A stretch of DNA of 64,000 nt from an uncultured Spirochaetales bacterium (GTDB taxonomy: Bacteria; Spirochaetota; GWE2-31-10; JAFGQB01). Positions within the stretch are counted from its first letter, which is position 1; each line of letters opens with the position of its first letter. The position numbers and the translations under genes are program-made. Location: NCBI GenBank assembly GCA_964531405.1, contig CAZHHK010000001.1:913-64912 (forward strand). Direction: 5' to 3'. The notes under the pieces are model-generated. The model was not told the DNA's origin and did not search any database. It was given only the letters and a program-made list of their open reading frames with translations. Positions 1,884 through 57,410 of this stretch are shown here, in pieces.

Positions 1884-3125
1884 TTAATCCAATTGATGTA
1901 TTACAAAACCTGACCTTGGTTTTGGATCAAACCATGTTGACTTGGGAGGCATAAGCAAACCTGCATCACTTACTCTTATTAATTCATCTATAGATGTTGG
2001 ATACATACTAAACATTACCTTAAATTCTCCGTTGTCAACCATTTTTTTTATTTCACCAGAAGACTTATTCCCACCAAAAAATTCGATCCTTTTATTCGTC
2101 CTTGGATTAACAATCCCCAATATTGCGTCAAGTATATATTTTTGTAAAATACTAGCATCAAGAGACAGTACAGGATCCGCTGTATTTTTAATTGTATCCT
2201 TCGGCTTCATTAAAAACCATTTGTTGCCCACATACATGCAGATTTGACCTTTTTTTAAAGGATTAAAACCTTCATCGCCATCATTGGTATTTATCTCTTC
2301 TAGATCAAAATTAGTCTTTATTTTATCTAAAAAACCTTCAACAGTATTACCGTTTAAATCTCTGATGGCTCTATTATACGGTAAAATCCTTAAAGAATCA
2401 TAAGAATAAACAATAGACATAACATAATTTGACTCATTATCTTCACTATTTATTCTTTTCTGTGCAACCTGTCTAGCAGCGCTTGCTCTATGATGCCCAT
2501 CGGCAATATAAAGGCAATCTATTTTTTCAAACTCATTAATTATATCATTAATAACTTTTTCGTTATTAATTATCCAGAATGTATGTCTGATTTTATCATC
2601 AGTTGTAAAATCATTTTCTGGTTTATTTTTCTGAATATCAAAAATTATTTTATCAAGATTCGTTTTTTTGTTGTGTATTAAAAAAACAGGGCCGGTCTGA
2701 GCATTTAATTCTTCTATATGCCGTATTCTATCATTTTCTTTTTCGGTTAATGTGTTTTCATGTTTTTTAATCCTGCCATTGACAAAATCATTAACATGAA
2801 TGACTCCTATAATACCCGTTTGCGAAAATTCTCCAAGAGTCTGTCTATATAAATACATACTTTTTTTGTCGTCTCTAACAAGGTATCCTTTTTCAATAAA
2901 TTCAAAAAAATTGTTTTTTGCTCTTTTGTAAACCTCATCGGAATAAGGATTAATATTTTCATCAAATTCTGATTCGGCTCTAGAAATTTTGTAAAAAGAC
3001 AAAGGATTTTTCTTAACTATTTCTTTTATCTCTTTTACTGACAAAACATCGTAAGGATATTCGACTATTTTTTCACAAAAATTTTTATTTGCTCTTAGCC
3101 CTCTAAAAGGTTTTATATTTATCAT
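1884..3125 (-). CDS. DUF1015 family protein (conserved hypothetical)
   Basis: 413-aa ORF, 5-nt spacing to lnt. Conserved blocks (GVIHVNDF, ADGHHRASAA, EFFGGNKSSGEI) match what I recall for DUF1015. No other recognisable catalytic motif. Confidence 0.6.
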   Translation of the reverse strand: MINIKPFRGLRANKNFCEKIVEYPYDVLSVKEIKEIVKKNPLSFYKISRAESEFDENINPYSDEVYKRAKNNFFEFIEKGYLVRDDKKSMYLYRQTLGEFSQTGIIGVIHVNDFVNGRIKKHENTLTEKENDRIRHIEELNAQTGPVFLIHNKKTNLDKIIFDIQKNKPENDFTTDDKIRHTFWIINNEKVINDIINEFEKIDCLYIADGHHRASAARQVAQKRINSEDNESNYVMSIVYSYDSLRILPYNRAIRDLNGNTVEGFLDKIKTNFDLEEINTNDGDEGFNPLKKGQICMYVGNKWFLMKPKDTIKNTADPVLSLDASILQKYILDAILGIVNPRTNKRIEFFGGNKSSGEIKKMVDNGEFKVMFSMYPTSIDELIRVSDAGLLMPPKSTWFDPKPRSGFVIHQLD

Positions 3126-29201: not shown

Positions 29202-29222
29202 TTAATTCGAATTTCGAATTAA
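29202..29222. promoter_or_regulatory. 21-bp perfect palindrome (putative operator) in the 5' leader of the PDO-like gene
   Basis: TTAATTCGAA-T-TTCGAATTAA: 10-bp perfect inverted-repeat arms with a 1-nt centre, 31 nt upstream of ATG 29253 and about 35 nt downstream of the predicted -10. A half-site-like AATTCGA also occurs at 29173-29179. Confidence 0.45.
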
Positions 29223-29252: not shown

Positions 29253-29894
29253 ATGTCAATATTCAATGATAGCATTAAAGAAAATCTTACAAAAATTCTT
29301 TCACAAATGAAAGAGAATGTAAATATAATATACTTTACTCAGGAAATCGAATGCAATACTTGTGCTGATACAAGGAAATTTTTAGAAGAAATTGCACAAT
29401 TAAATGATAAAATAAAACTCACGGTATTTAATTTTCAATTAAATCAGGACAAGGCAAAAGAATTAGTTGTAATGAAAATTCCTGCAATAATCCTTCTTGA
29501 TAAAGACAACAATGATACTGGTGTAAGATTTTATGGAATTCCCGGGGGATATGAAATAAATTCTTTTTTATCAGCAATTCTTGAAATTTCCGGTAACAGG
29601 ACAGAGCTTCCGGGGAATATATTAAATCGTATAAGAGCAATCAACAAAGATATTCACATCCAGGTTTTTGTAACTCTGGTCTGCCCCTATTGCCCCGCAT
29701 CTGTAGTGAATGCACATAAACTCGCTCTGGAAAATAAAAAAATAAAAGCCGATATGATTGAGAGCTCGACTTTCCCTCATCTGGCAATTAAGTATTCTGT
29801 TCAAGGAGTGCCTAAAACAATTATAAATGAAAAATACGAGCTTGTAGGCGCTCATCCAATAGAAAATTTACTGGATTTAATCGAAAAAATTTAA
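29253..29894 (+). CDS. Glutaredoxin-like protein disulfide oxidoreductase (PDO-type, two thioredoxin-fold units, two CxxC motifs)
   Basis: 213 aa; N-terminal unit with CNTC, C-terminal unit with CPYC. The two-domain architecture and size match PDO/glutaredoxin-like proteins of thermophiles. SD AAGGAGG upstream. Confidence 0.75.
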   Translation: MSIFNDSIKENLTKILSQMKENVNIIYFTQEIECNTCADTRKFLEEIAQLNDKIKLTVFNFQLNQDKAKELVVMKIPAIILLDKDNNDTGVRFYGIPGGYEINSFLSAILEISGNRTELPGNILNRIRAINKDIHIQVFVTLVCPYCPASVVNAHKLALENKKIKADMIESSTFPHLAIKYSVQGVPKTIINEKYELVGAHPIENLLDLIEKI

Positions 29895-39499: not shown

Positions 39500-42082
39500 A
39501 TGATTGGATCCAACAATTTAAATTTAAGAGATTGGCAACAATATTATATAAAACTCGATCCTTCTTATGGCAACTTAATAGCCAGTATTTTACAGTCTAT
39601 TTTTAAAAATAAGTATTCAACGATCAATTCACTCATAAATACAATCAAAAAAAAACAAACTAAAATAGTTACCGAAGAGGGAACTATCGATTTGCTTTTT
39701 AAATTTGATGAAGTAATAAAGCTTACTCCGAGATTTCAAATAACAAATACGGTCACTGGCGAAGACAATAAAATTAAAAATTCATTATCCATAGTATGTG
39801 ACTTTATAATTACACTCAATTTTAACAATATTAAAGGCTTTAATAACGAATATATAAAAAGTGTACAAGAACTTCTAGATAAATTGACAGCAATAAATAA
39901 AAAAATATTAATCAAATATTTATTAAAGCAATTAACTAAAGGAAATTATTTTGTTTCTATGGATTTTTTGGAAAAAGAAATATTTGAATCAAAAATACCT
40001 TTTACCGATTACACCGTACAGGATATTTTCCAAAAATTTAATGTTACGAGTTATAATACTATTTATTCACTTTTAAATTTGAATAATTATGACGATAATA
40101 ACAATATAACATCAAATGTAAAAGTAATAAGCATCCCTTTTACTCCTTATCATATGGATACGTATCTTTCCAGAGAATTGCAACATGTTTATAGAATAAA
40201 ATATAATATCGGCAAAGGAGAATTAAATACAAAATTACTTTATCTTAATGCAGATTATCCTATTGAAGATAAAAAAACTATTTATGATGCACTGGTTTTA
40301 AGCATTTATAATAATTATCTACCAAATAAATTAGACAGAACTTGTAATGATGATTTCAAATTTGAAACTGATGATATGACACAACAAGAAAATAAATCAT
40401 TAGAAGACTCATCTACAACTGAAGTACAAGATATAAAAGATAAATTCGAAAGAAAAAAAATGATTTTAAAGATTTTAAAAGCCGATAAAATCCCAAAACA
40501 CGAAATAGATTTTCTGGATTCTATAGATTATGAAAAACTTCACATTAAAAACACCTTCGTCTCGGTTTTAAATTATCTTTCAAATCCTTTCCTTTCAAAA
40601 ATAATAAACACAGCTCAGTTTAGATTTTTAAAGCAGTACATAATAACTAACTATGGCCCAAGCATAAAAGAAAGCATAGATGAAGAGACTAGAGCTTTGA
40701 TTGAAAAAAAATTTATAGAATATATTCAATCTAAAAACTGTTATTTTATTGAATTTTATAATAATATTCTTCAAAATATATGCGACTTAACCGGAGAGAA
40801 AAAATTTCTAGTTGATACGATAATCAGAACATCAAGTATATTTAAAAATTTTTGTTTTACAAAATATCTTGTAAAACAAAAAAAAACATCAATAAATAAT
40901 TTTCAAACATTTTTAAAAATAATAGGAAGTGACTTTTTTGCATTCTTAAATGATGGATCTGAAGATGATATGGTTGTTGTGCCTTATTTGAAAATCAAAG
41001 AATTCCTTCTTTTTTTGATTACATCGGAAATAAACTCAACCTGGCAAAAGTTAAAGGATCTTTTTGAAGAATTATTAAAAACTGTAAAATCGATTGTTTT
41101 TACGGCAAATCAAAGCGGCGCAGATATTCGCATGGTTATGATAGACAGTACAAATTATAATATAACTGTTAAAGATAGAAGTAATGTAAAAAATTTTCAA
41201 ATTAAGACTATTGAAGATATAGAATTTATATTTCAGGATAAAGAACAGGAAAAGTTCAAGACTATAGTTAAGATGCTTTATAACCTCCATTATAAAAGTG
41301 GTTTTGGTTTTGATAACAAAAAAGATTTCAATAAGCTTATAGAGATGTACAATGCAAGATGCGATGAATACAGTCTCTATAAATTAAAGCTTGATCAATA
41401 TGAAGAGGCAACATCAAGCGCCAAGGGGTTTCTTGCTTTTTTAAAAAAACTCTTTTTTTGGATCCCTATGGCTATTAACAACCATAATTTACTCAGGATA
41501 ATGAAAAAAAATGAAATTGTTGCTAAAAAAATTAAGCTTTATTATACTCAACCTGTAGAATGCCAGAAGACAAAAGTACTAGTGGGTAATAATAGCGAAC
41601 TGGGAAACATAAAAGAGAAAATAATGGAATTCATTAATACAAAAGATGAAATCGATTTGATAAAAGCTAAAAGAAAGCAGGAAAAAGTAAAAGAAATTCA
41701 ACCAAAGAAAGAAATCAAAAAAGAAGAAGAGAAAAAAATACCATTGCCTGAATTAGACAGTGAAGAACTCAAGCTTTTTGAATTTATTAATAAATATCTT
41801 AAAGCCGATAAAGATGTCATGTTTACTAGAAGCTCAAACATGGATGAAGAAATAATTGTTATATATATCAAAGACAATAAATCTCCAACGTTGTTTTCCA
41901 ATAATTTAAAAGACTTAAATACTATCGACGAATATTCTACAAGATATTTTAATATAAAACAGCTAATTAATAAAAGGTATATAAGCCAGAAAGAATTAAT
42001 AAGAACAACAAATGATAATAAAAAAATCTGCTATCTCACCTATGCACGGCAGTATTATCAATATATGAATAAATATAGATAA
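39500..42082 (+). CDS. Large hypothetical cytoplasmic protein (860 aa, no recognisable domain)
   Basis: Long uninterrupted ORF; AAAGG SD upstream; no signal peptide; no P-loop; K/E-rich linker (KKEIKKEEEKK); followed 4 nt later by the DUF62 gene. Confidence 0.5.
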   Translation: MIGSNNLNLRDWQQYYIKLDPSYGNLIASILQSIFKNKYSTINSLINTIKKKQTKIVTEEGTIDLLFKFDEVIKLTPRFQITNTVTGEDNKIKNSLSIVCDFIITLNFNNIKGFNNEYIKSVQELLDKLTAINKKILIKYLLKQLTKGNYFVSMDFLEKEIFESKIPFTDYTVQDIFQKFNVTSYNTIYSLLNLNNYDDNNNITSNVKVISIPFTPYHMDTYLSRELQHVYRIKYNIGKGELNTKLLYLNADYPIEDKKTIYDALVLSIYNNYLPNKLDRTCNDDFKFETDDMTQQENKSLEDSSTTEVQDIKDKFERKKMILKILKADKIPKHEIDFLDSIDYEKLHIKNTFVSVLNYLSNPFLSKIINTAQFRFLKQYIITNYGPSIKESIDEETRALIEKKFIEYIQSKNCYFIEFYNNILQNICDLTGEKKFLVDTIIRTSSIFKNFCFTKYLVKQKKTSINNFQTFLKIIGSDFFAFLNDGSEDDMVVVPYLKIKEFLLFLITSEINSTWQKLKDLFEELLKTVKSIVFTANQSGADIRMVMIDSTNYNITVKDRSNVKNFQIKTIEDIEFIFQDKEQEKFKTIVKMLYNLHYKSGFGFDNKKDFNKLIEMYNARCDEYSLYKLKLDQYEEATSSAKGFLAFLKKLFFWIPMAINNHNLLRIMKKNEIVAKKIKLYYTQPVECQKTKVLVGNNSELGNIKEKIMEFINTKDEIDLIKAKRKQEKVKEIQPKKEIKKEEEKKIPLPELDSEELKLFEFINKYLKADKDVMFTRSSNMDEEIIVIYIKDNKSPTLFSNNLKDLNTIDEYSTRYFNIKQLINKRYISQKELIRTTNDNKKICYLTYARQYYQYMNKYR

Positions 42083-42086
42083 GATT

Positions 42087-42872
42087 ATGCAAACAATTGT
42101 CGCATTATTAACCGACTTTGGCAGTAAAGACAATTATGTCGGAATATTAAAAGGTGTTTTACTGGACATAAATAAAAAAATTCAATGCATTGATATTTGT
42201 CATGATGTTTATCCTTATAATATAGTCTCTGCTTCATTTTTGCTTTATTCAAGCTTTGATTATTTCCCTAAAGATACAATTTTTTTGATAGTTGTTGACC
42301 CGGGCGTAGGCTCTGCAAGAAATGAAATTGTAGGTATAATTGATGGCAAATATGTAGTCTGCCCGGATAATGGCATAATAACCTTGCTTTATAAAATGAA
42401 GAATTCCGGTGATTTTTACAAAATCGACAGAAACAAAATAATTAAAACAACTAAAAGAGAAATAAATCCAACATTTCATGGAAGGGATATTTTTGCTCCG
42501 GCATGCGGAATAATTTCAAAAAACGGATTTAAAAAAATAATTACAGACAAGATAAATCCTCTGAAAATTGATACTTTTAATAATAAAATTTTAAAAAACA
42601 AAATAATTGGCAAGATTATTCATATCGATATATATGGCAACTGCATAACCTCAATTTATAAAAACGATATAAAAAAATTTAAATCAATAAATAAAATTAA
42701 AATCAACAAAACAACGATTTTCGGCATCAATAAATATTTTAGTGAAGTACCTCCAGGAAAAATCCTGGCTTACTGGGGTAGCTCAGGGTTCTTGGAAATC
42801 GCAATCAGAGAAGACAACGTCTGCAAAAAGCTTAATATAAAACAATTAGATTCTGTTGAATTATTTCTTTAG
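42087..42872 (+). CDS. SAM hydroxide adenosyltransferase (DUF62; fluorinase/chlorinase-like SAM hydrolase family)
   Basis: 261 aa; N-terminal LTDFGSKDNYVGILKGV; VVDPGVGSAR; matches the DUF62 family. Confidence 0.8.
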   Translation: MQTIVALLTDFGSKDNYVGILKGVLLDINKKIQCIDICHDVYPYNIVSASFLLYSSFDYFPKDTIFLIVVDPGVGSARNEIVGIIDGKYVVCPDNGIITLLYKMKNSGDFYKIDRNKIIKTTKREINPTFHGRDIFAPACGIISKNGFKKIITDKINPLKIDTFNNKILKNKIIGKIIHIDIYGNCITSIYKNDIKKFKSINKIKINKTTIFGINKYFSEVPPGKILAYWGSSGFLEIAIREDNVCKKLNIKQLDSVELFL

Positions 42873-42964
42873 CCTTTTTTAAAAAGCTAAAATATTTTTC
42901 ATGGACAACCCAACTATTTTTTTCTTTAATTTAATAAAATTCTACTTCAAAAAAATAAAAAATA

Positions 42965-42993
42965 TTGACATTAGCTTAATAATTTACTATACT
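42965..42993 (+). promoter_or_regulatory. Sigma70-like promoter (TTGACA-17 nt-TATACT) of the Rrf2/sulfur operon
   Basis: -35 TTGACA at 42965-42970; 17-nt spacer; -10 TATACT at 42988-42993; 36 nt upstream of ATG 43029. Confidence 0.45.
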
Positions 42994-42995
42994 AT

Positions 42996-43014
42996 CTTTA
43001 CTAACTTAGTAAAG
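42996..43014. promoter_or_regulatory. 19-bp perfect palindrome (putative Rrf2 autoregulatory operator) overlapping the transcription start
   Basis: CTTTACTAA-C-TTAGTAAAG: 9-bp perfect inverted-repeat arms, immediately downstream of the -10 and 15 nt upstream of the Rrf2 ATG. Confidence 0.45.
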
Positions 43015-43028
43015 TATGAGAGTTAATC

Positions 43029-43442
43029 ATGATCGAATTGACAAACAAAACAATTTATTCCTTAAAGATATTACTGGAATTATCAAAAAGCTACAATAAA
43101 TCAATCATGCAGATAAATGATTTTAATAAAAAGCAAAATATACCAAAAAGCTTTTTAATACAATTGTTGAATAAATTGAAGAATCTTAAATTAATAGACA
43201 GCATCAGAGGGAATAAAGGCGGCTACAGGCTTGCAGTCAGTCCTGACAATATAATTGTTTTTGAGATTATTGACAAACTTGAAGGCGGTTTTGAGATTTT
43301 TAAAAATTATAAAGATAAGGATTATTTAAAGATGATTTTTAACAAATCAATGGATGCCTTAAAGCAAAATCTGAATATTTCCCTAAAAGAAGTCTTGTTA
43401 CAGCAAGAAAAACTGGAAAACAACGTAATGTATTTTATTTAA
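43029..43442 (+). CDS. Rrf2-family transcriptional regulator (Cys-less, CymR-like rather than IscR-like)
   Basis: 137 aa; N-terminal wHTH typical of Rrf2 (TNKTIYSLKILLELSK); it lacks the three-Cys Fe-S ligand cluster. Confidence 0.75.
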   Translation: MIELTNKTIYSLKILLELSKSYNKSIMQINDFNKKQNIPKSFLIQLLNKLKNLKLIDSIRGNKGGYRLAVSPDNIIVFEIIDKLEGGFEIFKNYKDKDYLKMIFNKSMDALKQNLNISLKEVLLQQEKLENNVMYFI

Positions 43443-43461
43443 TAAACGAGGAGAATAATTT

Positions 43462-44748
43462 ATGTCAAATTTAAAGTTTGAAACACTGGCGATTCACAGC
43501 GGTAAAACAATCGATGAAAATGCCCTGTCAATAGGATTACCTGTCCAGAGAACCTCTGCTTATTACTTTAAAAACGCTGAGCATGCGGCAAATCTTTTTG
43601 GATTAAAAGAGCTTGGCAATATTTATACAAGACTCGGCAATCCTACACAGGAAATTCTGGAAAAAAGACTCGCCAGTCTTGAAAAGGGTCAGGCTGCTTT
43701 AGCTCTTTCATCAGGAACAGCTGCAATCTATTATTCTGTAATAAATATAGCAAAAGCCGGTGATGAGATTATCTCTGCGAATAATCTCTATGGCGGTACT
43801 TTTACAATGTTTAATGATATTCTGCCGCAGTTTAATATAAAAACAAAATTTTTCAATCAGGATAATCCCGATGAAATAAAAAATCTTGTAAATGAAAAAA
43901 CGCGTCTTATTTTTATAGAAACGATAGGCAATCCTGCCCTGGATTTTACAGATATCGAAGAGGTGTCAAAAATCGCAAGGCATTATAACCTTCCTCTTAT
44001 TGTTGACTCCACGTTTACAACTCCGTATCTTTTAAATCCAATAGAACATGGCGCTGACATAGTAATTCACTCATTGACAAAATGGATCGGAGGCCATGGC
44101 ACTGGCATAGGAGGCATCGTGGTTGATTCGGGTAAATTTAACTGGAAGGACAAAAAATTTGCTCTGTACAACGAGCCTGATACAGGCTATCATAACCTTA
44201 GATTTGCTCATGACCTTCCAGAGCCGTTATTGCCTGTTGCTTTTACATGGAGAATGCGACTCGTACCTTTAAGGAACCTCGGTGCATGTATTTCTCCTGA
44301 TAACGCATGGATATTCTTGCAAGGACTAGAGACCCTTGCATTGAGGATGGAAAGACACTCTGAAAACGCAATGAAGGTTGCCGAATTTCTAAAATCCAAT
44401 CCTAAAGTAAGCTGGGTAAGATATCCAGGATTAAAAGATGATAAATCCTATAAAACAGCAAGCAAATATCTTAAAAAAGGATTCGGAGGCATGGTCGTAT
44501 TCGGTATAAAAGGCGGCATAGAGTCTGGTAGGAAATTCATCGAGAATTTAAAGCTGTTCACACATTGTGCAAACGTTGGCGATGCTAAAAGCCTTGCCAT
44601 TCATCCCGCTTCAACTACTCATTCTCAATTAAGCGATAAAGACAAACTATCCGGCGGAATAACCGATGATTTGATAAGATTATCCATTGGTATTGAAAAC
44701 ATTAATGATATACTGGACGACATAAAGCAATCAATCGATAAAATATAG
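43462..44748 (+). CDS. metY: O-acetylhomoserine sulfhydrylase / aminocarboxypropyltransferase (PLP-dependent, Cys/Met-metabolism family)
   Basis: 428 aa; PLP-Lys motif [11 protein letters not shown]; the length and N-terminal region fit MetY/OAH sulfhydrylase better than MetB/MetC. Confidence 0.8.
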
Positions 44749-44756
44749 GATGACAA

Positions 44757-44957
44757 ATGATTAACATAACAGTTAATGGTAAAAAAGAGACGATTAATAC
44801 TATATCATTAAGTGAATATCTGAATTCTAAAAATATCAACAAAAATACCGTAGTTGTTGAGATAAACGGAAATATAATTCAAAAAACCGATGTTGAAAAA
44901 ACAGAATTTAAAGAAAATGATAAGGTTGAGATCGTAAGATTTATAGGCGGCGGTTAA
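44757..44957 (+). CDS. ThiS/MoaD-like sulfur-carrier protein (C-terminal GGG)
   Basis: 66 aa beta-grasp-sized ORF ending ...IVRFIGGG-stop; its stop overlaps the ThiF-like start (TAATG). Confidence 0.65.
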   Translation: MINITVNGKKETINTISLSEYLNSKNINKNTVVVEINGNIIQKTDVEKTEFKENDKVEIVRFIGGG

Positions 44958-45520
44958 TGAAAAAAATAGGCATTGCCGGAGTCGGCGGCATTGGCAGTAA
45001 CATTGCAATGCTTTTGACAAGAGCCGGAGTTGATAACTTCAAGATAGTTGATTTTGATAAAATCGACAGATCAAATCTCAACCGCCAGTTTTATTTCCGC
45101 GATCAAATCGGCAAAACTAAAACAAAGGCTTTGGAAAAAAACTTAAAGAGGATAAACAAAGATATCTCTATAGAAAGATCCAACATCTTACTTAATGAAA
45201 GTAACATAGATTCAATTTTTGCGGATTGCGATATTATTGTCGAGGGGTTTGACAAAGCCCATGATAAATCAATGATAATAGATGCATACTCCAAAACAGG
45301 CAAGCTTATAGTATCTGCCTGCGGTGTTGCAGGTCTTGATACCAGTAATATCTCGACAAAAAGACTCCAGGATAATGTTTTTATTGTCGGTGATTTTTCA
45401 AATGATATAACGGACAAAAAACTTTTCTCGACAAAAGTGATGATAATAGCCTCAAAGATGGCTGAAATAATTTTAAAGCACTTAAATTATACAGATGCAA
45501 TATCTTTACAGGGAGATTAA
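44957..45520 (+). CDS. ThiF/MoeB/HcyF-like E1 adenylyltransferase (short form, no rhodanese domain)
   Basis: 187 aa; Rossmann nucleotide-binding [17 protein letters not shown]; ThiF-family core. Confidence 0.7.
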
Positions 45521-45522
45521 TT

Positions 45523-46440
45523 TTGAATATAGCGAGAAACATTACAGATCTAATTGGTAAAACACCTCTGGTTTATATAAATAAACTGGCTGAAAATATG
45601 AATTCAAAGATAGCGGCAAAACTCGAATTTTTTAATCCTCTATCAAATGTAAAGGACAGAATAGCCCTTGCAATGATCGAAGATGCAGAAAAAAAAGGGC
45701 TTATCGATAAGGATACAGTGATAATAGAGCCAACAAGCGGCAACACGGGTATCGGTCTTGCCTTTGTCTGTGCGGTTAAAGGCTATAAATTGATCCTTAC
45801 AATGCCCGAATCTATGAGCATTGAAAGAAGAAAGCTTTTAAAGATTTTAGGCGCAGAAATCATACTCACTCCTGAAGATAAAAGGATGGCGGGAGCGGTT
45901 TCTAAAGCGGAAGAATTATCAAGGCAATACAAAAAATCATTTATCCCGCAGCAGTTTAATAATCCGGCAAACCCTGAAGTTCACAGGAAAACCACAGCTT
46001 TAGAAATATGGAATGACACCGAAGGCAAAATAGATATATTTGTCTGCGGCATAGGTACAGGAGGCACAATCACAGGAATCGGAGAAATTTTAAAACAGAA
46101 AAACCCATCTGTAAAAATAATCGGTATAGAGCCTGCTGGTTCTGCAGTGATATCCGGCGAAAATCCCGGACCTCATGGTTTACAGGGGCTCGGAGCAGGA
46201 TTTATCCCTAAAGTTTTAAATACTGGAATCCTTGACGAAGTAATAAAAGTAAATAACAACGATGCATACGATATGACAAAACAGCTTGCAAAAAAAGAGG
46301 GAATTTTTGCAGGGATTTCATCCGGTGCCGCGCTTTATGCAAGTCTAGAAATAGCAAAAAGAGAAGATAAAAAGTTAATTGTAACGCTTTTTCCCGATAC
46401 AGGAGAAAGATACCTGTCCATGGATTTCTGGGATAAATGA
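45523..46440 (+). CDS. cysK: Cysteine synthase (O-acetylserine / O-phosphoserine sulfhydrylase, CysK/CysM family)
   Basis: 305 aa; PLP-Lys in SNVKDRIAL; [10 protein letters not shown]; glycine-rich [10 protein letters not shown] loop. Confidence 0.85.
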
Positions 46441-46444
46441 TTTT

Positions 46445-47275
46445 ATGAAACTTGAAGAAAAAATATCATTGTTAAAAAGACAATTGTCGGAATACAAAAA
46501 AATACTCATCGCATTTTCAGGCGGAGTGGATAGCTCCCTGCTTCTTAAGGTTTCAACGGATGTTCTGGGCAGTAAAAACATCATTGCTGCAACTGCTGAT
46601 TCTCCAACCTATACAAATGAAGAATTAAAGGAAGCAAAAAAACTTACAAAATCCTTAAGAGTAAAGCATATCATTTTCAAGACAAAGGAATTCAATGATG
46701 AAAATTTCATTAATAATCCGCCTCTGCGCTGTTATTACTGTAAAAAAGAGCTTTTTGGAAAGCTTGAAGCAATCAGGGAGAAATACAATTGTGATATGAT
46801 AATAGACGGTGCAAATTATGATGACAGGAATGATCACAGACCGGGCACAAAAGCCGAGAATGAATTCAAGATTCAGACACCTTTAAAGGATGCGTTTTTT
46901 ACAAAACAGGACATACGGGAATATTCCAGACAACTTAAACTAAAAACCCATGATGCACCTTCGATGGCATGCCTTGCGTCTAGAATTCCTTATGGAGAAA
47001 AAATCACCAGGCAAAAAATTAAAATGATTGATGCCGGTGAAAAATTTTTAAAAGCACTTGGCATCAGGGTTTTGCGTTTGAGAAGTACCTCAGATACCGC
47101 CAGAATTGAAGTGAATCCCGAAGACTTCAACAAAATTTTAAACAACAAAAATTCCATTATTAAAAAACTGAAAAAAATCGGCTATAAATACATAACACTC
47201 GACCTTGAAGGATTCAGAAGCGGCAGTATGAATGAAGTGTTAAAGAAATCACAAAAATTCGGAAGGGAAAAATGA
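46445..47275 (+). CDS. PP-loop ATP pyrophosphatase, LarE/TIGR00268-like sulfur transferase
   Basis: 276 aa; PP-loop AFSGGVDSS; conserved Cys pair in PPLRCYYCK; the size fits the LarE family. Confidence 0.6.
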   Translation: MKLEEKISLLKRQLSEYKKILIAFSGGVDSSLLLKVSTDVLGSKNIIAATADSPTYTNEELKEAKKLTKSLRVKHIIFKTKEFNDENFINNPPLRCYYCKKELFGKLEAIREKYNCDMIIDGANYDDRNDHRPGTKAENEFKIQTPLKDAFFTKQDIREYSRQLKLKTHDAPSMACLASRIPYGEKITRQKIKMIDAGEKFLKALGIRVLRLRSTSDTARIEVNPEDFNKILNNKNSIIKKLKKIGYKYITLDLEGFRSGSMNEVLKKSQKFGREK

Positions 47276-48345
47276 AAATAGCCATAGGCTTAAGCGGCGG
47301 GGTTGATTCTACAATGACCGCCAGTTTATTGAAGGAACAGGGACACGAAGTAATCGGTTTAACAATGAAACTCTGGGATGAAACAAACAGAGCAACTGTT
47401 ACAAAATCTGCATGTTTCGGTCCCGATGAACTAAAAGATATCGATGATTTAAAACGAATTGCCTCAAAACTTGAGATCCCCTTACACATAATAGATCTAT
47501 CAAAAGAATATTCACAGACAATCCTGTCGTATTTTCAGGAAGAATATTTATCGGGCAGAACTCCCAATCCCTGCGTACGATGCAATCAGACAATGAAATT
47601 CAATCTCCTGTTAAAAAAAGCTTACGACAGTGGGATATATTTTGATAAGTTTGCCACAGGTCATTATGCACGCATTGTCTTTGATGAGTCAAAATCACGC
47701 TATTTATTGAAAAAAGGGCTTGATCCAAAAAAAGACCAGTCGTATTTCCTTGTTCTTTTAAAACAGGAACAATTGTCAAAAATAATCTTCCCTCTTGGAG
47801 AGATGACAAAAGACAAAGTAAAATCGAAGGCAAAAGAATTAAAACTCGGTCTGCATGAAAAAAAGGAAAGTCAGGATTTTTATTCTGGTGATTACATAGA
47901 TTTGATAAGTAAAATCCCTGAAGCAGGAAAAATCATCCACAAGGACGGCAAAGTCCTTGGCACTCATAAAGGGATATGCTTTTATACCATAGGTCAGAGA
48001 AAAGGGCTTGGAGTATCATATAAAGAGCCTCTATACGTAATCAAAATCGACAAGAAAACAAACACTGTAATAGTAGGCTCTGAGAATGATCTTTTTAAAA
48101 GCGAATTGATCGTATCAAACATAAACTGGATAGCATTTGAAAAGCCTGTAAATCCCTTTAAAGCAAAAGTAAGAGTTAGATATCTTCATAAAGAAGATGA
48201 TGCAGAAATAATCCCTGACGGTAATGGCAAGGCAAGAATTATTTTTGACAAACCCCAAAGGGCGATATCCCCTGGTCAGTATGCTGCTTTTTTTGATGAC
48301 GATACCGTACTCGGTGGCGGCATCATTGACGAAGTATTAAAGTAA
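47272..48345 (+). CDS. mnmA: tRNA-specific 2-thiouridylase MnmA
   Basis: 357 aa; PP-loop GLSGGVDST; catalytic Cys motif PNPCVRCN; overlaps the LarE-like gene by 4 nt. Confidence 0.85.
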   Translation: MKIAIGLSGGVDSTMTASLLKEQGHEVIGLTMKLWDETNRATVTKSACFGPDELKDIDDLKRIASKLEIPLHIIDLSKEYSQTILSYFQEEYLSGRTPNPCVRCNQTMKFNLLLKKAYDSGIYFDKFATGHYARIVFDESKSRYLLKKGLDPKKDQSYFLVLLKQEQLSKIIFPLGEMTKDKVKSKAKELKLGLHEKKESQDFYSGDYIDLISKIPEAGKIIHKDGKVLGTHKGICFYTIGQRKGLGVSYKEPLYVIKIDKKTNTVIVGSENDLFKSELIVSNINWIAFEKPVNPFKAKVRVRYLHKEDDAEIIPDGNGKARIIFDKPQRAISPGQYAAFFDDDTVLGGGIIDEVLK

Positions 48346-48361
48346 TTAAAGTAATTAAAGA

Positions 48362-49126
48362 TTACTCCTCACCAGAAAGATATCTGCTATTTATATTACT
48401 CATGGATTTAAAAATATTATATTTAATAACATCATTCCCTTTTGTGAATACTTTTAATGACTCCCTAATTTCTTTCCTTTTTGAATTAGCTCCATATGGA
48501 CATTTGCAGGAAAGACTGTCAAAACCTGCTTCTTTTGCAAACTCGATTATAAGGCTTTCCTTTACCTCGGATAGAGGTCTAATTATGGTTAAGGGATAAT
48601 TATCAAACTGCATCACAGGAAGCATCCCTGCAATCTGTCCCTTGTAAAACATGTTCATCAACAGCGTTTCCACGATGTCATCAAGATGATGCCCAAGAGC
48701 AATCTTATTAAAACCGTTTTCCCTTGCATATTTCATAAGCTCCATCCTCCTCTGGGAAGAGCACCAGTAACAGTTCATAGTCTTGCCGTTTTTTACTCTT
48801 TTTAATATTGCAACATCAATGATTTTAAAAGGAATTCCCATTTCATTGAATTTTTCTTCGAGTTTTGAGTTCTGGCAACATGTGCAAAAATCGGATTGAA
48901 TGTGGACTGCCTCAAAATCGAATTTAATCGGAAACCTTTTTTTTCTTTCTTTAAGATCAAATAGCATTGTCATAGAGTCCTTACCACCTGAAATCGCAGC
49001 AAGAATTCTATCATTTTCTTTTATCATACCGTATTTGAAAATGGTTTTACCGATTATTTTTGAAATCTTTGATGAAATTTTACTCATTGGAATTTGTTTT
49101 ATAACATTTATCTTCAAATCGTTCAA
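48362..49126 (-). CDS. TtcA-like tRNA thiolation PP-loop ATPase
   Basis: 254 aa; PP-loop AISGGKDS; cysteine clusters (CTCCQ, CYWC) consistent with Fe-S-dependent TtcA-type enzymes. Confidence 0.7.
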   Translation of the reverse strand: MNDLKINVIKQIPMSKISSKISKIIGKTIFKYGMIKENDRILAAISGGKDSMTMLFDLKERKKRFPIKFDFEAVHIQSDFCTCCQNSKLEEKFNEMGIPFKIIDVAILKRVKNGKTMNCYWCSSQRRMELMKYARENGFNKIALGHHLDDIVETLLMNMFYKGQIAGMLPVMQFDNYPLTIIRPLSEVKESLIIEFAKEAGFDSLSCKCPYGANSKRKEIRESLKVFTKGNDVIKYNIFKSMSNINSRYLSGEE

Positions 49127-49138
49127 TATTACATGAAT

Positions 49139-49888
49139 TTACAATCCGGTAGGTATATCAAAAAAAACAGAATTGATATTTAGTTTCTCTTCTATCAATC
49201 TTCTCAATGCCTTTACACCAAAAGTCTCGGTAAAATAATGACCAGCAAATAAAACATTAATTTTATTTTCCTTTGCCTGATGATATATTACATGTTCGGC
49301 ATCGCCTGTAATAAACAAATCAAATTTGTTGTTTACCGCCTCATCGAAAGCAAAATTACCACCGCCTGAAACAACACCAATTTTCCTTATTTCCTTATTA
49401 CCGAAATCAAAATATTTAATGCTATTACTTTCAATTTTTAAATTTAATATTATTTCCTCTATGGTAAAAGGCGTATTGTTCTCGCAATACCAGCCAATCT
49501 TTACTCCTTTATAATTTGCAAATAATTCTTTTTTATCATAACCTATAGCCTTCAATATCTGGATATTATTTCCATAATCCTCATGACAGTCAAGAGGCAA
49601 ATGATATGCTATAAGTCCAATATCATTATCAAGAAACATCTTTACTCTTTCTCTAAAGTTACCAGTTATAGGGTTTATTTTTGACCAAAACAATCCGTGA
49701 TGTACGACAAGTAACTTGCAGTTGTTTTTTAGAGCCTCTTTGATAGCCTCAACCGATGCATCAACGGTAAACCCTATTTTATCAATATCGCCTATATTTT
49801 CAACCTGAATGCCATTAATCGCATAATCAGGCATCGTCATCGGATCCAGTAAATTTTTTAAGAATTTATCGATTTCTTTTATTAACAT
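49139..49888 (-). CDS. Nif3-family dinuclear metal centre protein (YqfO/GTP cyclohydrolase I type 2-like)
   Basis: 249 aa; conserved His clusters (VVHHGLFW, AYHLPLD, AGHYFTE). Confidence 0.75.
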   Translation of the reverse strand: MLIKEIDKFLKNLLDPMTMPDYAINGIQVENIGDIDKIGFTVDASVEAIKEALKNNCKLLVVHHGLFWSKINPITGNFRERVKMFLDNDIGLIAYHLPLDCHEDYGNNIQILKAIGYDKKELFANYKGVKIGWYCENNTPFTIEEIILNLKIESNSIKYFDFGNKEIRKIGVVSGGGNFAFDEAVNNKFDLFITGDAEHVIYHQAKENKINVLFAGHYFTETFGVKALRRLIEEKLNINSVFFDIPTGL

Positions 49889-49902
49889 AAGAATACCTTA
49901 AT

Positions 49903-50676
49903 TTACTTTACTAATGAAGGGTGGGAAATTTTAATAATACTGTATAATTCTTTTTCTATATATTTCTTTAGAATGCTTTTATTTTTATTAAATAAATAAT
50001 ACTTGTTAATATGATTTAAAATAATCTTATTTTGCTTTTCTTTAATATTAAACATTGAGGTTAAAAAATCAAACACCTTATCTATAAAATTTATTTCCAG
50101 AAGCAGGACTATTATTTCAAATAAAAATCCTGCAGGATTACCAAATTTATTTGAGTATTTACTGAATAATTTTTTAGCACCATTCATATTATTAAGAGCA
50201 ATAAAATCGGCACAAAGTAAATAATAAAATTCTTCGGATTTATATTTTATTATACTGTCTTCACAGATAGTTTCAGCGGTATGAAATTTTTCAGTATAAA
50301 AAGAAATAAGGGCTTTCTGATATGATAATATTTTTCCTGCTTCCCTAGAATCAACCTCATGGTCTTCAAGATATAATTCCCAACCTATATTATTAAATTT
50401 AACTGCTTCATCATATTCTCCCAATTTGATAAGACAGTCAACCTTATTTAATAAAGCCTCGATGGAAGAGCTAACTTCAAACAATTTGCCATAAAAAAAA
50501 GAAGCGAGATTTATTTTACTTGCATCTTTTAAAGCCTTAGATAAAACTAAAAATTTATTTTTCGAATTCAGTCCTTCAAAATACTTTAATGAAATACCGC
50601 AATCCCCTGCCATTTTTGTCAGATTATACCTCTTTTCATAGTACTCATAAGTTTTATCAATTTCAGTCAAATCCAT
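49903..50676 (-). CDS. Hypothetical alpha-helical protein (TPR-like)
   Basis: 257-aa ORF; helical repeat-like; no motif. Confidence 0.35.
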   Translation of the reverse strand: MDLTEIDKTYEYYEKRYNLTKMAGDCGISLKYFEGLNSKNKFLVLSKALKDASKINLASFFYGKLFEVSSSIEALLNKVDCLIKLGEYDEAVKFNNIGWELYLEDHEVDSREAGKILSYQKALISFYTEKFHTAETICEDSIIKYKSEEFYYLLCADFIALNNMNGAKKLFSKYSNKFGNPAGFLFEIIVLLLEINFIDKVFDFLTSMFNIKEKQNKIILNHINKYYLFNKNKSILKKYIEKELYSIIKISHPSLVK

Positions 50677-51048
50677 TTGTATTTTATAAGCTCCTCTTTT
50701 TATATTATACTATATAAAGCAAATTTATCAAAATTTAATGAATTTATTAAAAATTTTACAAGTTTTGTTGATATAAAATAAACTGATCCACACCAGCTAA
50801 TCAATTTTAAAAATTCTTTCTTAATTTATAGTAAATTTTACGGAATAATTTTCTTAAAAATCAAATTTTAAAGCTTGTTTTTTTTATTTTTTCCTAAGTT
50901 AATAACCACTCGTCCTTAATAATTTCGCCTTTTATACTTACAACAATAAGCTTTAAAGGATACTAACAGAATTTACAATAAAATTCTGTTTTATCGCTTA
51001 ATAAGATATGATATTATCCGTGTTATTTGTAAATATGGATAATGATTT

Positions 51049-56621: not shown

Positions 56622-57410
56622 TTACATTAATTTTGTACTTAAAATCTGGTTTACGATAGCCAATACAACGCCGGCAAAATTAATTAGAGAATGCATCCAA
56701 ATTGTTACATTAATCGATTTATTGATCTTTCTCTGAATAGATAAAAAAATACCAATTATGAATGCATAGACAACATTTGTAAAAGAAGGAATATGAAATA
56801 AAGCAAAAAATAAACTTATGATTATTACATCTACATTTTTATATTTTATAAAGTTTTCTATAAATTCCTGTAAAAACCCTCTGAATAAAATTTCTTCATA
56901 AATCGGGGCTATTATTATTATTAAAGTTAACCATATTATAACTTTATAATCTGCTCCATCATCAATAAAATCTAAAAGCTCGACTAATGCTTTATTTGGC
57001 AATATCAGACTGTTTTTAAATTTAAAATTGTCTGGCAATAAATTTATAATTGATGTTATAAATACCAATATGACTAGAGCAATGCCAAATGCTATGATTG
57101 CTGGAATCAGTGCTTTCCCCAAGGAAATAAACCAATTTTCATTGGAAAATAATCTTTCCCTTGTTTTGAATACAAAATTTAACAAGCCATACAAAAGAAA
57201 AAATATAACATACATGGAAATAAGATAAATAATTTCTTTTTCTTCCACCAATTTTATCAAAAAAAGATTGCTACTATAAAATCCACTTATTTTGATAAGC
57301 ACATTTGTTATTAATGCTGATGTAATTATAGGAATTACTAAACAGATAAAAAAAAGAAATAATCCATTTAATCTAGAAAAATACCGATATATCGTATTAT
57401 TTATCATCAC
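56622..57410 (-). CDS. CPBP-family intramembrane metalloprotease (CAAX protease-like)
   Basis: 262 aa; polytopic; EExxxR motif (YEEILFRGFL); FxxxH (FALFH); second His near the C-terminus (WMHSLIN). Confidence 0.75.
   Translation of the reverse strand: MMINNTIYRYFSRLNGLFLFFICLVIPIITSALITNVLIKISGFYSSNLFLIKLVEEKEIIYLISMYVIFFLLYGLLNFVFKTRERLFSNENWFISLGKALIPAIIAFGIALVILVFITSIINLLPDNFKFKNSLILPNKALVELLDFIDDGADYKVIIWLTLIIIIAPIYEEILFRGFLQEFIENFIKYKNVDVIIISLFFALFHIPSFTNVVYAFIIGIFLSIQRKINKSINVTIWMHSLINFAGVVLAIVNQILSTKLM

Follow-up and report, generated by a model that had tools for sequence, protein, structure and literature searches.

To our knowledge, few organisms are known to make methionine or cysteine by a protein-thiocarboxylate route, and the two characterised routes are JAMM-dependent; in these systems HcyD and Mec+ are reportedly needed to free the amino acid from its adduct with the carrier. 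In Wolinella succinogenes the pathway is composed of HcyS, HcyF, HcyD and MetY (Krishnamoorthy & Begley 2011, as cited in PMC8191291 and PMC6225789), and according to the two citing papers MetY takes its sulfur from the carrier thiocarboxylate, not from bisulfide. The cysteine pathway of Mycobacterium tuberculosis is composed of CysO, MoeZ, Mec+ and CysM (Burns et al. 2005, as cited in PMC6225789). Reports of similar gene clusters go back to 2006; none of these clusters has been characterised. Here we describe one in a 64,000-nucleotide stretch of DNA from an uncultured Spirochaetales bacterium (contig CAZHHK010000001.1 of assembly GCA_964531405.1), hereafter the window. It is an operon of seven + strand open reading frames in the order Rrf2-MetY-ThiS-ThiF (short form)-CysK-LarE-MnmA, tightly packed behind a sigma-70-like promoter, and it is a lineage-specific variant of the known sulfur-carrier systems. 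What sets the arrangement apart is that it occurs clade-wide, has no JAMM gene nearby, contains a thiazole-type ThiS/ThiF pair and has lost thiamine-riboswitch control. Because MetY-ThiS-ThiF mirrors HcyS-HcyF-MetY of Wolinella, we rank carrier-assisted homocysteine synthesis, from a single transcription unit with a strong sigma-70-type promoter, first among the readings of this operon, a tentative choice to which we would give slightly less than an even chance.

Like the Wolinella system, the window operon encodes together a ThiS-fold carrier, an E1 without a rhodanese domain and an O-acetylhomoserine (OAH) sulfhydrylase. It differs in having neither a JAMM protease nearby nor a C-terminal extension on the carrier, in lacking sulfate/sulfite reduction genes and SirA, and in its carrier and E1, which are of the thiazole type (ThiS/thiF_fam2), with a MetY that is only distantly related. 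The M. tuberculosis system shares with it a carrier encoded beside a PALP-family cysteine synthase, but the window enzyme is CysK-type, no Mec+ JAMM hydrolase is found nearby and the E1 has no rhodanese domain. A cluster in Pelobacter propionicus (PMC1779556) also places a thiamine-type E1 outside a thiamine operon, together with an OAH sulfhydrylase and a cysteine synthase and with no JAB protein. In that cluster, however, ThiF has a fused ubiquitin-like domain, whereas ThiS of the window is standalone, and the window operon differs further in its Rrf2 regulator and in an arrangement that defines a whole spirochaete-like clade. Finally, in the TtuB/TtuC/TtuA system of Thermus thermophilus a ThiS-like carrier and an E1 are likewise associated with [4Fe-4S] PP-loop thiolases, and iron-sulfur (Fe-S) types of such enzymes are predicted in the window; the differences are that the window has a TtcA-like neighbour and no TtuA orthologue, and that the thiolase linkage is not conserved in relatives.

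Conserved gene order and origin of the carrier pair

Gene families were assigned by Pfam and NCBIfam profile matches, with bit scores set against the model cutoffs. The gene at 43462-44748 (+) encodes MetY, an OAH sulfhydrylase (TIGR01326, 599.6 bits against a cutoff of 495). It is followed by a 66-amino-acid ThiS sulfur carrier with a FIGGG end at 44757-44957 (+; PF02597; TIGR01683, 63.8 against 37.45), by a short ThiF (thiF_fam2), the E1-like adenylyltransferase for ThiS, at 44957-45520 (+; NF006395, 215.7 against 159; TIGR02354, 159 against 152), and by CysK, a cysteine synthase A with a TTG start, at 45523-46440 (+; TIGR01139, 448 against 351). Read directly from the sequence, the ThiS/ThiF junction is a TAATG overlap and the LarE/MnmA junction an ATGA overlap, the remaining gaps measure 2-19 base pairs (bp), and a consensus scan of these short intergenic gaps gave no terminator-like site. 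The gene overlaps imply co-translation or co-transcription. The gene identities, the operon structure and a convergent TtcA-like gene, all proposed before in a sequence-only reading of this DNA, therefore stand. An identical ThiF is present on 14 metagenome contigs, and the five contigs that were fetched all show the same locus.

Around ThiF relatives, 80 genome loci were compared, with neighbour genes mapped by tblastn. MetY-ThiS-ThiF is adjacent and invariant in eight distinct genomes (the window, L006, L014, L061, L089, L090, L091 and L100), with ThiF identities of 48% to 69% and short intergenic gaps. CysK follows the triplet in the window, in L006 (a Spirochaetota metagenome-assembled genome, MAG; MetY-ThiS-ThiF-CysK) and in the metagenome contig L089 (Rrf2-MetY-ThiS-ThiF-CysK, with MnmA 1.8 kb further). 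It precedes the triplet in three Brevinematales/Brevinematia genomes (L014, L100 and L061) and in L091 (metagenome assembly GCA_900174565.1), all of them Rrf2-CysK-MetY-ThiS-ThiF, and in the metagenome contig L090 (CysK-MetY-ThiS-ThiF). That CysK switches sides and the linkage is nevertheless kept argues for selection on the linkage, and, judged from synteny, the conserved functional core is MetY-ThiS-ThiF together with CysK. One could suppose instead that a rearrangement left ThiS/ThiF beside MetY by chance, with no functional or regulatory meaning, since gene order in the clade is variable: CysK changes position, L006 and L090 have no Rrf2, and the pair is split in a further Brevinematales MAG (L007). 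We consider this very improbable, as the triplet is kept with short gaps in eight genomes at ThiF identities down to 48%, and the gene overlaps in the window point to joint expression.

By sequence, the window pair is orthologous to the ThiS and ThiF of thiazole (thiamine) synthesis. Canonical anaerobic thiazole operons make up the majority of the 80 ThiF loci; their order is thiS-thiG-thiH-thiF, in most cases with thiE next. In a neighbour-joining tree the window ThiF groups with those of L006, L007 and L014 inside the thiazole-type ThiFs; its closest named relatives, at 57-69% identity, come from Spirochaetota and Brevinematales/Brevinematia MAGs. The Pfam match of ThiF covers the adenylation domain only (PF00899 profile positions 22-149 of 238). 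The ThiS proteins that accompany this ThiF subfamily, also in thiS-thiG-thiH-thiF operons, almost all have an F[VI]GGG end, so that the GGG end, which had been taken for an anomaly of the carrier, is the norm of the subfamily. As the terminal Gly-Gly of ThiS is already exposed, no maturation protease is needed.

Compared with a thiazole operon of the order thiS-thiG-thiH-thiF(-thiE) with short ThiF (TIGR02354/PRK08644), the window thus shares orthologous ThiS and ThiF, a ThiF identity of 45-58% and the FVGGG tail. It differs in that the pair has no adjacent thiG, thiH, thiE or thiamine pyrophosphate (TPP) riboswitch and is embedded in a methionine/cysteine operon behind an Rrf2 promoter/operator. 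Neither thiG nor thiH was found in the window or in eight clade loci (L007 and the seven that are MetY-linked). Rfam searches detected no TPP riboswitch and no S-adenosylmethionine (SAM) riboswitch in the window or in the same eight loci, and a TPP riboswitch in seven of eight thiazole-type loci searched. The absence from one group and presence in the other indicate that the pair has passed out of thiamine control and under the promoter/operator of the sulfur amino-acid operon. In this Brevinematia-like lineage, then, a carrier pair of thiazole ancestry has left its thiG/thiH operon and TPP riboswitch for sulfur amino-acid control. A comparison of ThiG from a related thiazole operon with 5.8 billion proteins gave no lineage information in its best 120 matches, ThiG being too conserved.

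Two loci outside the triplet group show other layouts. In an Omnitrophota MAG (L038, 3459-13690) a TPP riboswitch and thiE-thiS-thiG-thiH-thiF abut Rrf2-MetY-CysK-MetX-MetW, and MetW is followed by a PP-loop protein (ThiI-like with an NFACT-R_2 domain) and by MnmA; a thiazole operon and a CymR-like methionine/cysteine/tRNA-thiolation operon are thus immediate neighbours in another phylum. In L007 (4167-6259) a small nucleotidyltransferase gene (Polbeta/NTP_transf_2) lies between ThiS and ThiF and a PIN-domain gene follows the pair, and these insertions between and after the pair are toxin-antitoxin-like genes. The 6.3 kb contig of L007 carries no MetY, CysK, ThiG or ThiH.

Sulfur donor of MetY and competing readings

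Under carrier-assisted homocysteine synthesis, ThiF would adenylate the exposed C-terminal Gly of ThiS, and sulfide or a persulfide would turn the adenylate into ThiS-thiocarboxylate. This thiocarboxylate would then be the sulfur nucleophile with which MetY converts O-acetylhomoserine to homocysteine, and CysK may likewise use it on O-acetylserine (OAS). Homocysteine would have to be released without a JAMM hydrolase. LarE and MnmA, for their part, are PP-loop enzymes that consume sulfur and would be additions of this organism to the operon. Such a thiocarboxylate route to homocysteine is plausible from the gene content and its conservation.

Several results weigh against it. MetY scores 478 bits to the sulfide-using MetY of Thermotoga maritima and 263 to the carrier-dependent MetY of Wolinella; among structures its closest matches are 8sf5 and T. 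maritima MetY (7kb0), with Wolinella MetY (3ri6) far behind. Within 18 kb of an orthologous MetY (70% identity) in locus L102 there are no carrier genes. The cysteine synthase of the window is CysK-type, with both CysM models below cutoff, and the proposed analogy with CysO/CysM falls with it. The cutoffs of the thiamine models for ThiS and short ThiF (TIGR01683, NF006395 and TIGR02354) are all passed. Lastly, the Pfam-labelled genes, both in the 64 kb window and in the related neighbourhoods, include no JAB/JAMM (Prok-JAB) hydrolase, as the sequence-only reading had already remarked for the vicinity of the operon.

Several of these results favour the main rival, a general sulfur relay. Here MetY and CysK would fix free sulfide, and ThiS-thiocarboxylate would serve thiazole synthesis, through a ThiG or Thi4 whose gene lies elsewhere, and perhaps also the Fe-S-type insertases (LarE, MnmA and the TtcA-like enzyme), the genes being co-regulated by sulfur/cysteine status through Rrf2. 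Such a relay agrees with the orthology of ThiS/ThiF to the thiazole pair and their passing of the equivalog cutoffs, with a GGG tail equal to that of thiazole-operon ThiS, with a MetY and a CysK of ordinary sulfide-using types and with the missing JAMM hydrolase. In addition, ThiS/ThiF of the window have three PP-loop sulfur insertases around them, all with Cys motifs of the Fe-S type. The literature offers parallels: the ThiF, OAH sulfhydrylase and cysteine synthase cluster of Pelobacter propionicus has been read in this way (Iyer et al. 2006, PMC1779556), a 2025 preprint presents Thi4 neighbourhoods with ThiS, ThiF, CysK, LarE and MnmA as clusters for sulfur relay (bioRxiv 10.1101/2025.09.23.678117), and TtuB thiocarboxylate (TtuB-COSH) supplies TtuA with sulfur (PMC6225789). 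However, the partners conserved in the eight genomes are MetY and CysK and no thiolation enzyme. LarE is in the operon in the window only, among these loci, and MnmA is linked in some: the window, L089, L102 (MetY-MnmA only) and the Omnitrophota locus L038; in L101 it stands alone. The proposal that the operon is wired to tRNA thiolation is accordingly largely specific to the window. The relay also sits poorly with the loss of TPP control and the lack of adjacent thiG/thiH, and with an MnmA subtype lacking one catalytic Cys (see below) that is also found without ThiS/ThiF nearby, in L101 and L095. We regard the relay as a substantial possibility on which we would nonetheless not bet; if it is true, what we see is a sulfur operon of an ordinary, co-regulated kind.

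A further alternative runs the chemistry in reverse. MetY and/or CysK would act as homocysteine/cysteine desulfhydrases whose local sulfide charges the ThiS adenylate (ThiS-AMP), replacing cysteine desulfurase in a scavenger of sulfur amino acids. Enzymes of the Cys_Met_Meta_PP and PALP families are capable of desulfhydrase side reactions, which counts in its favour. So do the lack of a cysteine desulfurase (Aminotran_5 family) in the 64 kb window and of metX, metA and cysE in the operon or the window, and a proposal that cysteine is the donor for ThiS in such clusters (Iyer et al., PMC1779556). We hold this alternative to be improbable, because MetY passes the OAH/OAS sulfhydrylase model and stays below cutoff for the methionine gamma-lyase models, CysK passes the biosynthetic cysK equivalog, and Rrf2-MetY-CysK followed by MetX-MetW in the Omnitrophota locus is a biosynthetic context.

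An extended form of carrier-assisted homocysteine synthesis, which we find unlikely as a whole, is that Brevinematia-like spirochaetes recruited the thiazole ThiS/ThiF pair as sulfur donor of MetY. This would make a JAMM-independent thiocarboxylate route with an ordinary sulfide-type MetY, in which ThiS-COSH may also feed the Fe-S-type LarE, the Cys199-less MnmA and TtcA: a sulfur economy that needs no cysteine desulfurase and is controlled by a single CymR-like repressor. The operon is a clean test case for the re-use of sulfur carriers between cofactor and amino-acid synthesis, and for the question of whether an ordinary MetY can accept carrier sulfur. The names assigned by annotation pipelines (thiamine ThiS/ThiF) may mislead metabolic reconstructions that ask whether Brevinematia and related MAGs are prototrophic for thiamine and methionine.

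Proteins encoded next to ThiF in relatives were also considered. A 515-amino-acid protein (L014 and L100) and a 376-amino-acid protein (L091) encoded after ThiF were rejected as candidates for a missing hydrolase, since neither has a homologue in the window; both have signal-peptide-like N-termini, and by their sequences they look like an outer-membrane protein and a lipoprotein-like one. In Brevinematales bacterium NS (L061, 10506-11402) ThiF overlaps at its end with a gene for an Rce1-like (CPBP) intramembrane protease. We found no evidence that this protease acts on the carrier, and the window has an Rce1-like gene of its own at 56622-57410, separate from the operon.

Promoter, palindrome and the Rrf2 regulator

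The promoter at 42965-42993 (+), TTGACA-17-TATACT, matches the sigma-70 consensus at 11 of 12 positions and is the top-scoring site in 42000-50000. It is followed at 42996-43014 by a perfect 9-1-9 palindrome, CTTTACTAA-C-TTAGTAAAG, lying over the predicted transcription start, which is a candidate operator for the Rrf2-family regulator of 137 amino acids encoded next (43029-43442, +; PF02082 and TIGR00738). This palindrome occurs once in the window. At 31% G+C, palindromes of this size are not rare there (seven distinct ones against about five expected), and the weight of this one comes from its position directly after the -10 element and from its conservation in L089, not from its presence as such. 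There, upstream of an orthologous Rrf2 (53% identical), TTGACA-17-TATACT is followed by three bases and then by TTTACTAA-T-TAAGTAAA. The proposed promoter/operator architecture is therefore upheld, its layout recurring before an orthologous regulator. The same -35/-10 pair is placed before MetY in L006, and more distant relatives have other palindromes at the same position after the -10 element, several with a TACTA core; that of L038 is TTACTAAGGTTAGTC.

Rrf2 heads an operon with metY and cysK in six of the eight genomes. Its translation contains no Cys, and CymR is its best specific Rrf2 subfamily match, at 75.6 bits against a cutoff of 195 (NF047409), so the equivalog level is not reached; its closest structure in the PDB is B. 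subtilis CymR (2y75). An earlier description of the regulator as Cys-less and CymR-like thus agrees with the profile matches. With the palindrome over the transcription start, these observations support autorepression, and the operon is probably repressed by its own first product, with Rrf2 binding the palindrome.

The B. subtilis counterpart, reportedly treated by Even in 2006, Tanous in 2008 and Black & Dos Santos in 2015, comprises the regulation by CymR with CysK and the gene arrangement cymR-yrvO-mnmA. The window operon resembles it in having a Cys-less Rrf2 at the head of an operon that ends in mnmA, and in having CysK, which serves as co-repressor to CymR. It differs in that no cysteine desulfurase (YrvO) lies between regulator and mnmA, in that the operator is a 9-1-9 palindrome, and in that the regulator is far below the CymR cutoff. 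A search near the operon with a pattern for the B. subtilis CymR box gave no match. That CymR works together with CysK in B. subtilis is stated in PMC6522883.

At 11251-11267 of L089 an operator-like palindrome, TTACTAT-T-ATAGTAA, lies 47 bp upstream of the start of a separately transcribed mnmA. This hints at a small Rrf2 regulon and suggests that mnmA belongs to it. The window itself contains no convincing further copy of the operator, the site with two mismatches at 50891-50905 being within chance expectation. Another perfect palindrome, TAATTCGAA-T-TTCGAATTA at 29203-29221, is one of the seven in the window with arms of at least 9 nucleotides; the gene that starts some 30 bp downstream of it is thioredoxin-like (29253-29894).

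Sulfur insertases and flanking genes

The sixth gene (46445-47275, +) encodes a LarE-type PP-loop sulfur insertase (TIGR00268, 324.7 bits against 150) with an SGGVDS PP-loop and a CxxC-C motif (C96, C99 and C176). In an alignment with LarE of Lactobacillus plantarum, C96 and C99 stand where that enzyme has W and A, and C176, the third Cys, lies one residue off the position of the sacrificial Cys176 of the L. plantarum protein. The phosphate ligands of P2CMN are kept, S179, R211 and R213 aligning with S180, R212 and R214. As the CxxC-C motif has been described for the [4Fe-4S], catalytic type of LarE in T. maritima (PMC9283937), the window LarE is predicted to be of this type. No larA, larB or larC (families LarA, AIRC and DUF111) is present in the 64 kb window.

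The last gene of the operon (47272-48345, +) encodes MnmA, the tRNA U34 2-thiolase (NF001138, 393 bits against 284; PF03054, PF20259 and PF20258). The catalytic cysteines of E. coli MnmA are C102 and C199, and the second site examined here corresponds to C199. In the window protein the first site is a CxxC (C101 and C104), and a short deletion of 3-7 residues, depending on the alignment (to 2hma, 9hln and relatives), removes the second catalytic Cys and leaves the motif ESQDFYSGDY. Of the 120 closest homologues, which come from Spirochaetota, Omnitrophota and Bacteroidales, 119 lack the canonical second Cys, and Cys47, Cys101 and Cys104 are retained in every one of these 119. An MnmA-based metagenome scan gave seven loci, and MnmA without the second Cys is encoded in the window, L089, L082, L095, L099, L101 and L102. 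By these alignments it is a widespread subtype, neither a local oddity nor tied to ThiS/ThiF; its possible use as a signature of ThiS/ThiF dependence was rejected for this prevalence and for its occurrence alone in L101. A persulfide relay through C199 is, on the aligned residues, impossible in this subtype, and LarE and MnmA are both predicted to be Fe-S types, the use of Cys47 in an Fe-S site of MnmA being a guess.

Immediately downstream and convergent with the operon, at 48362-49126 on the - strand and outside it, is a TtcA-like PP-loop gene (PF01171; 190 bits to the TtcA model, below its cutoff of 272). Its product resembles [4Fe-4S] TtuA/TtcA enzymes, and its best PDB match is the [4Fe-4S] TtuA PH0300.

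Directly upstream of the operon, at 42087-42872, is a gene of the SAM hydroxide adenosyltransferase/(R)-SAM hydrolase family (PF01887 and PF20257), preceded at 39500-42082 by an open reading frame of 860 amino acids, rich in Lys, Asn and Ile and without a Pfam domain. The whole 64 kb window contains no tRNA genes and no Rfam families at gathering score. On a related contig, dnaA and dnaN are seen just past the high-coordinate end of the window. Near its other end, at 1884-3125, lies a DUF1015 gene; serine is the precursor of the CysK substrate, and the DUF1015 family (SerBK) has been proposed to take the place of phosphoserine phosphatase in some routes to serine (2026 GapMind preprint).

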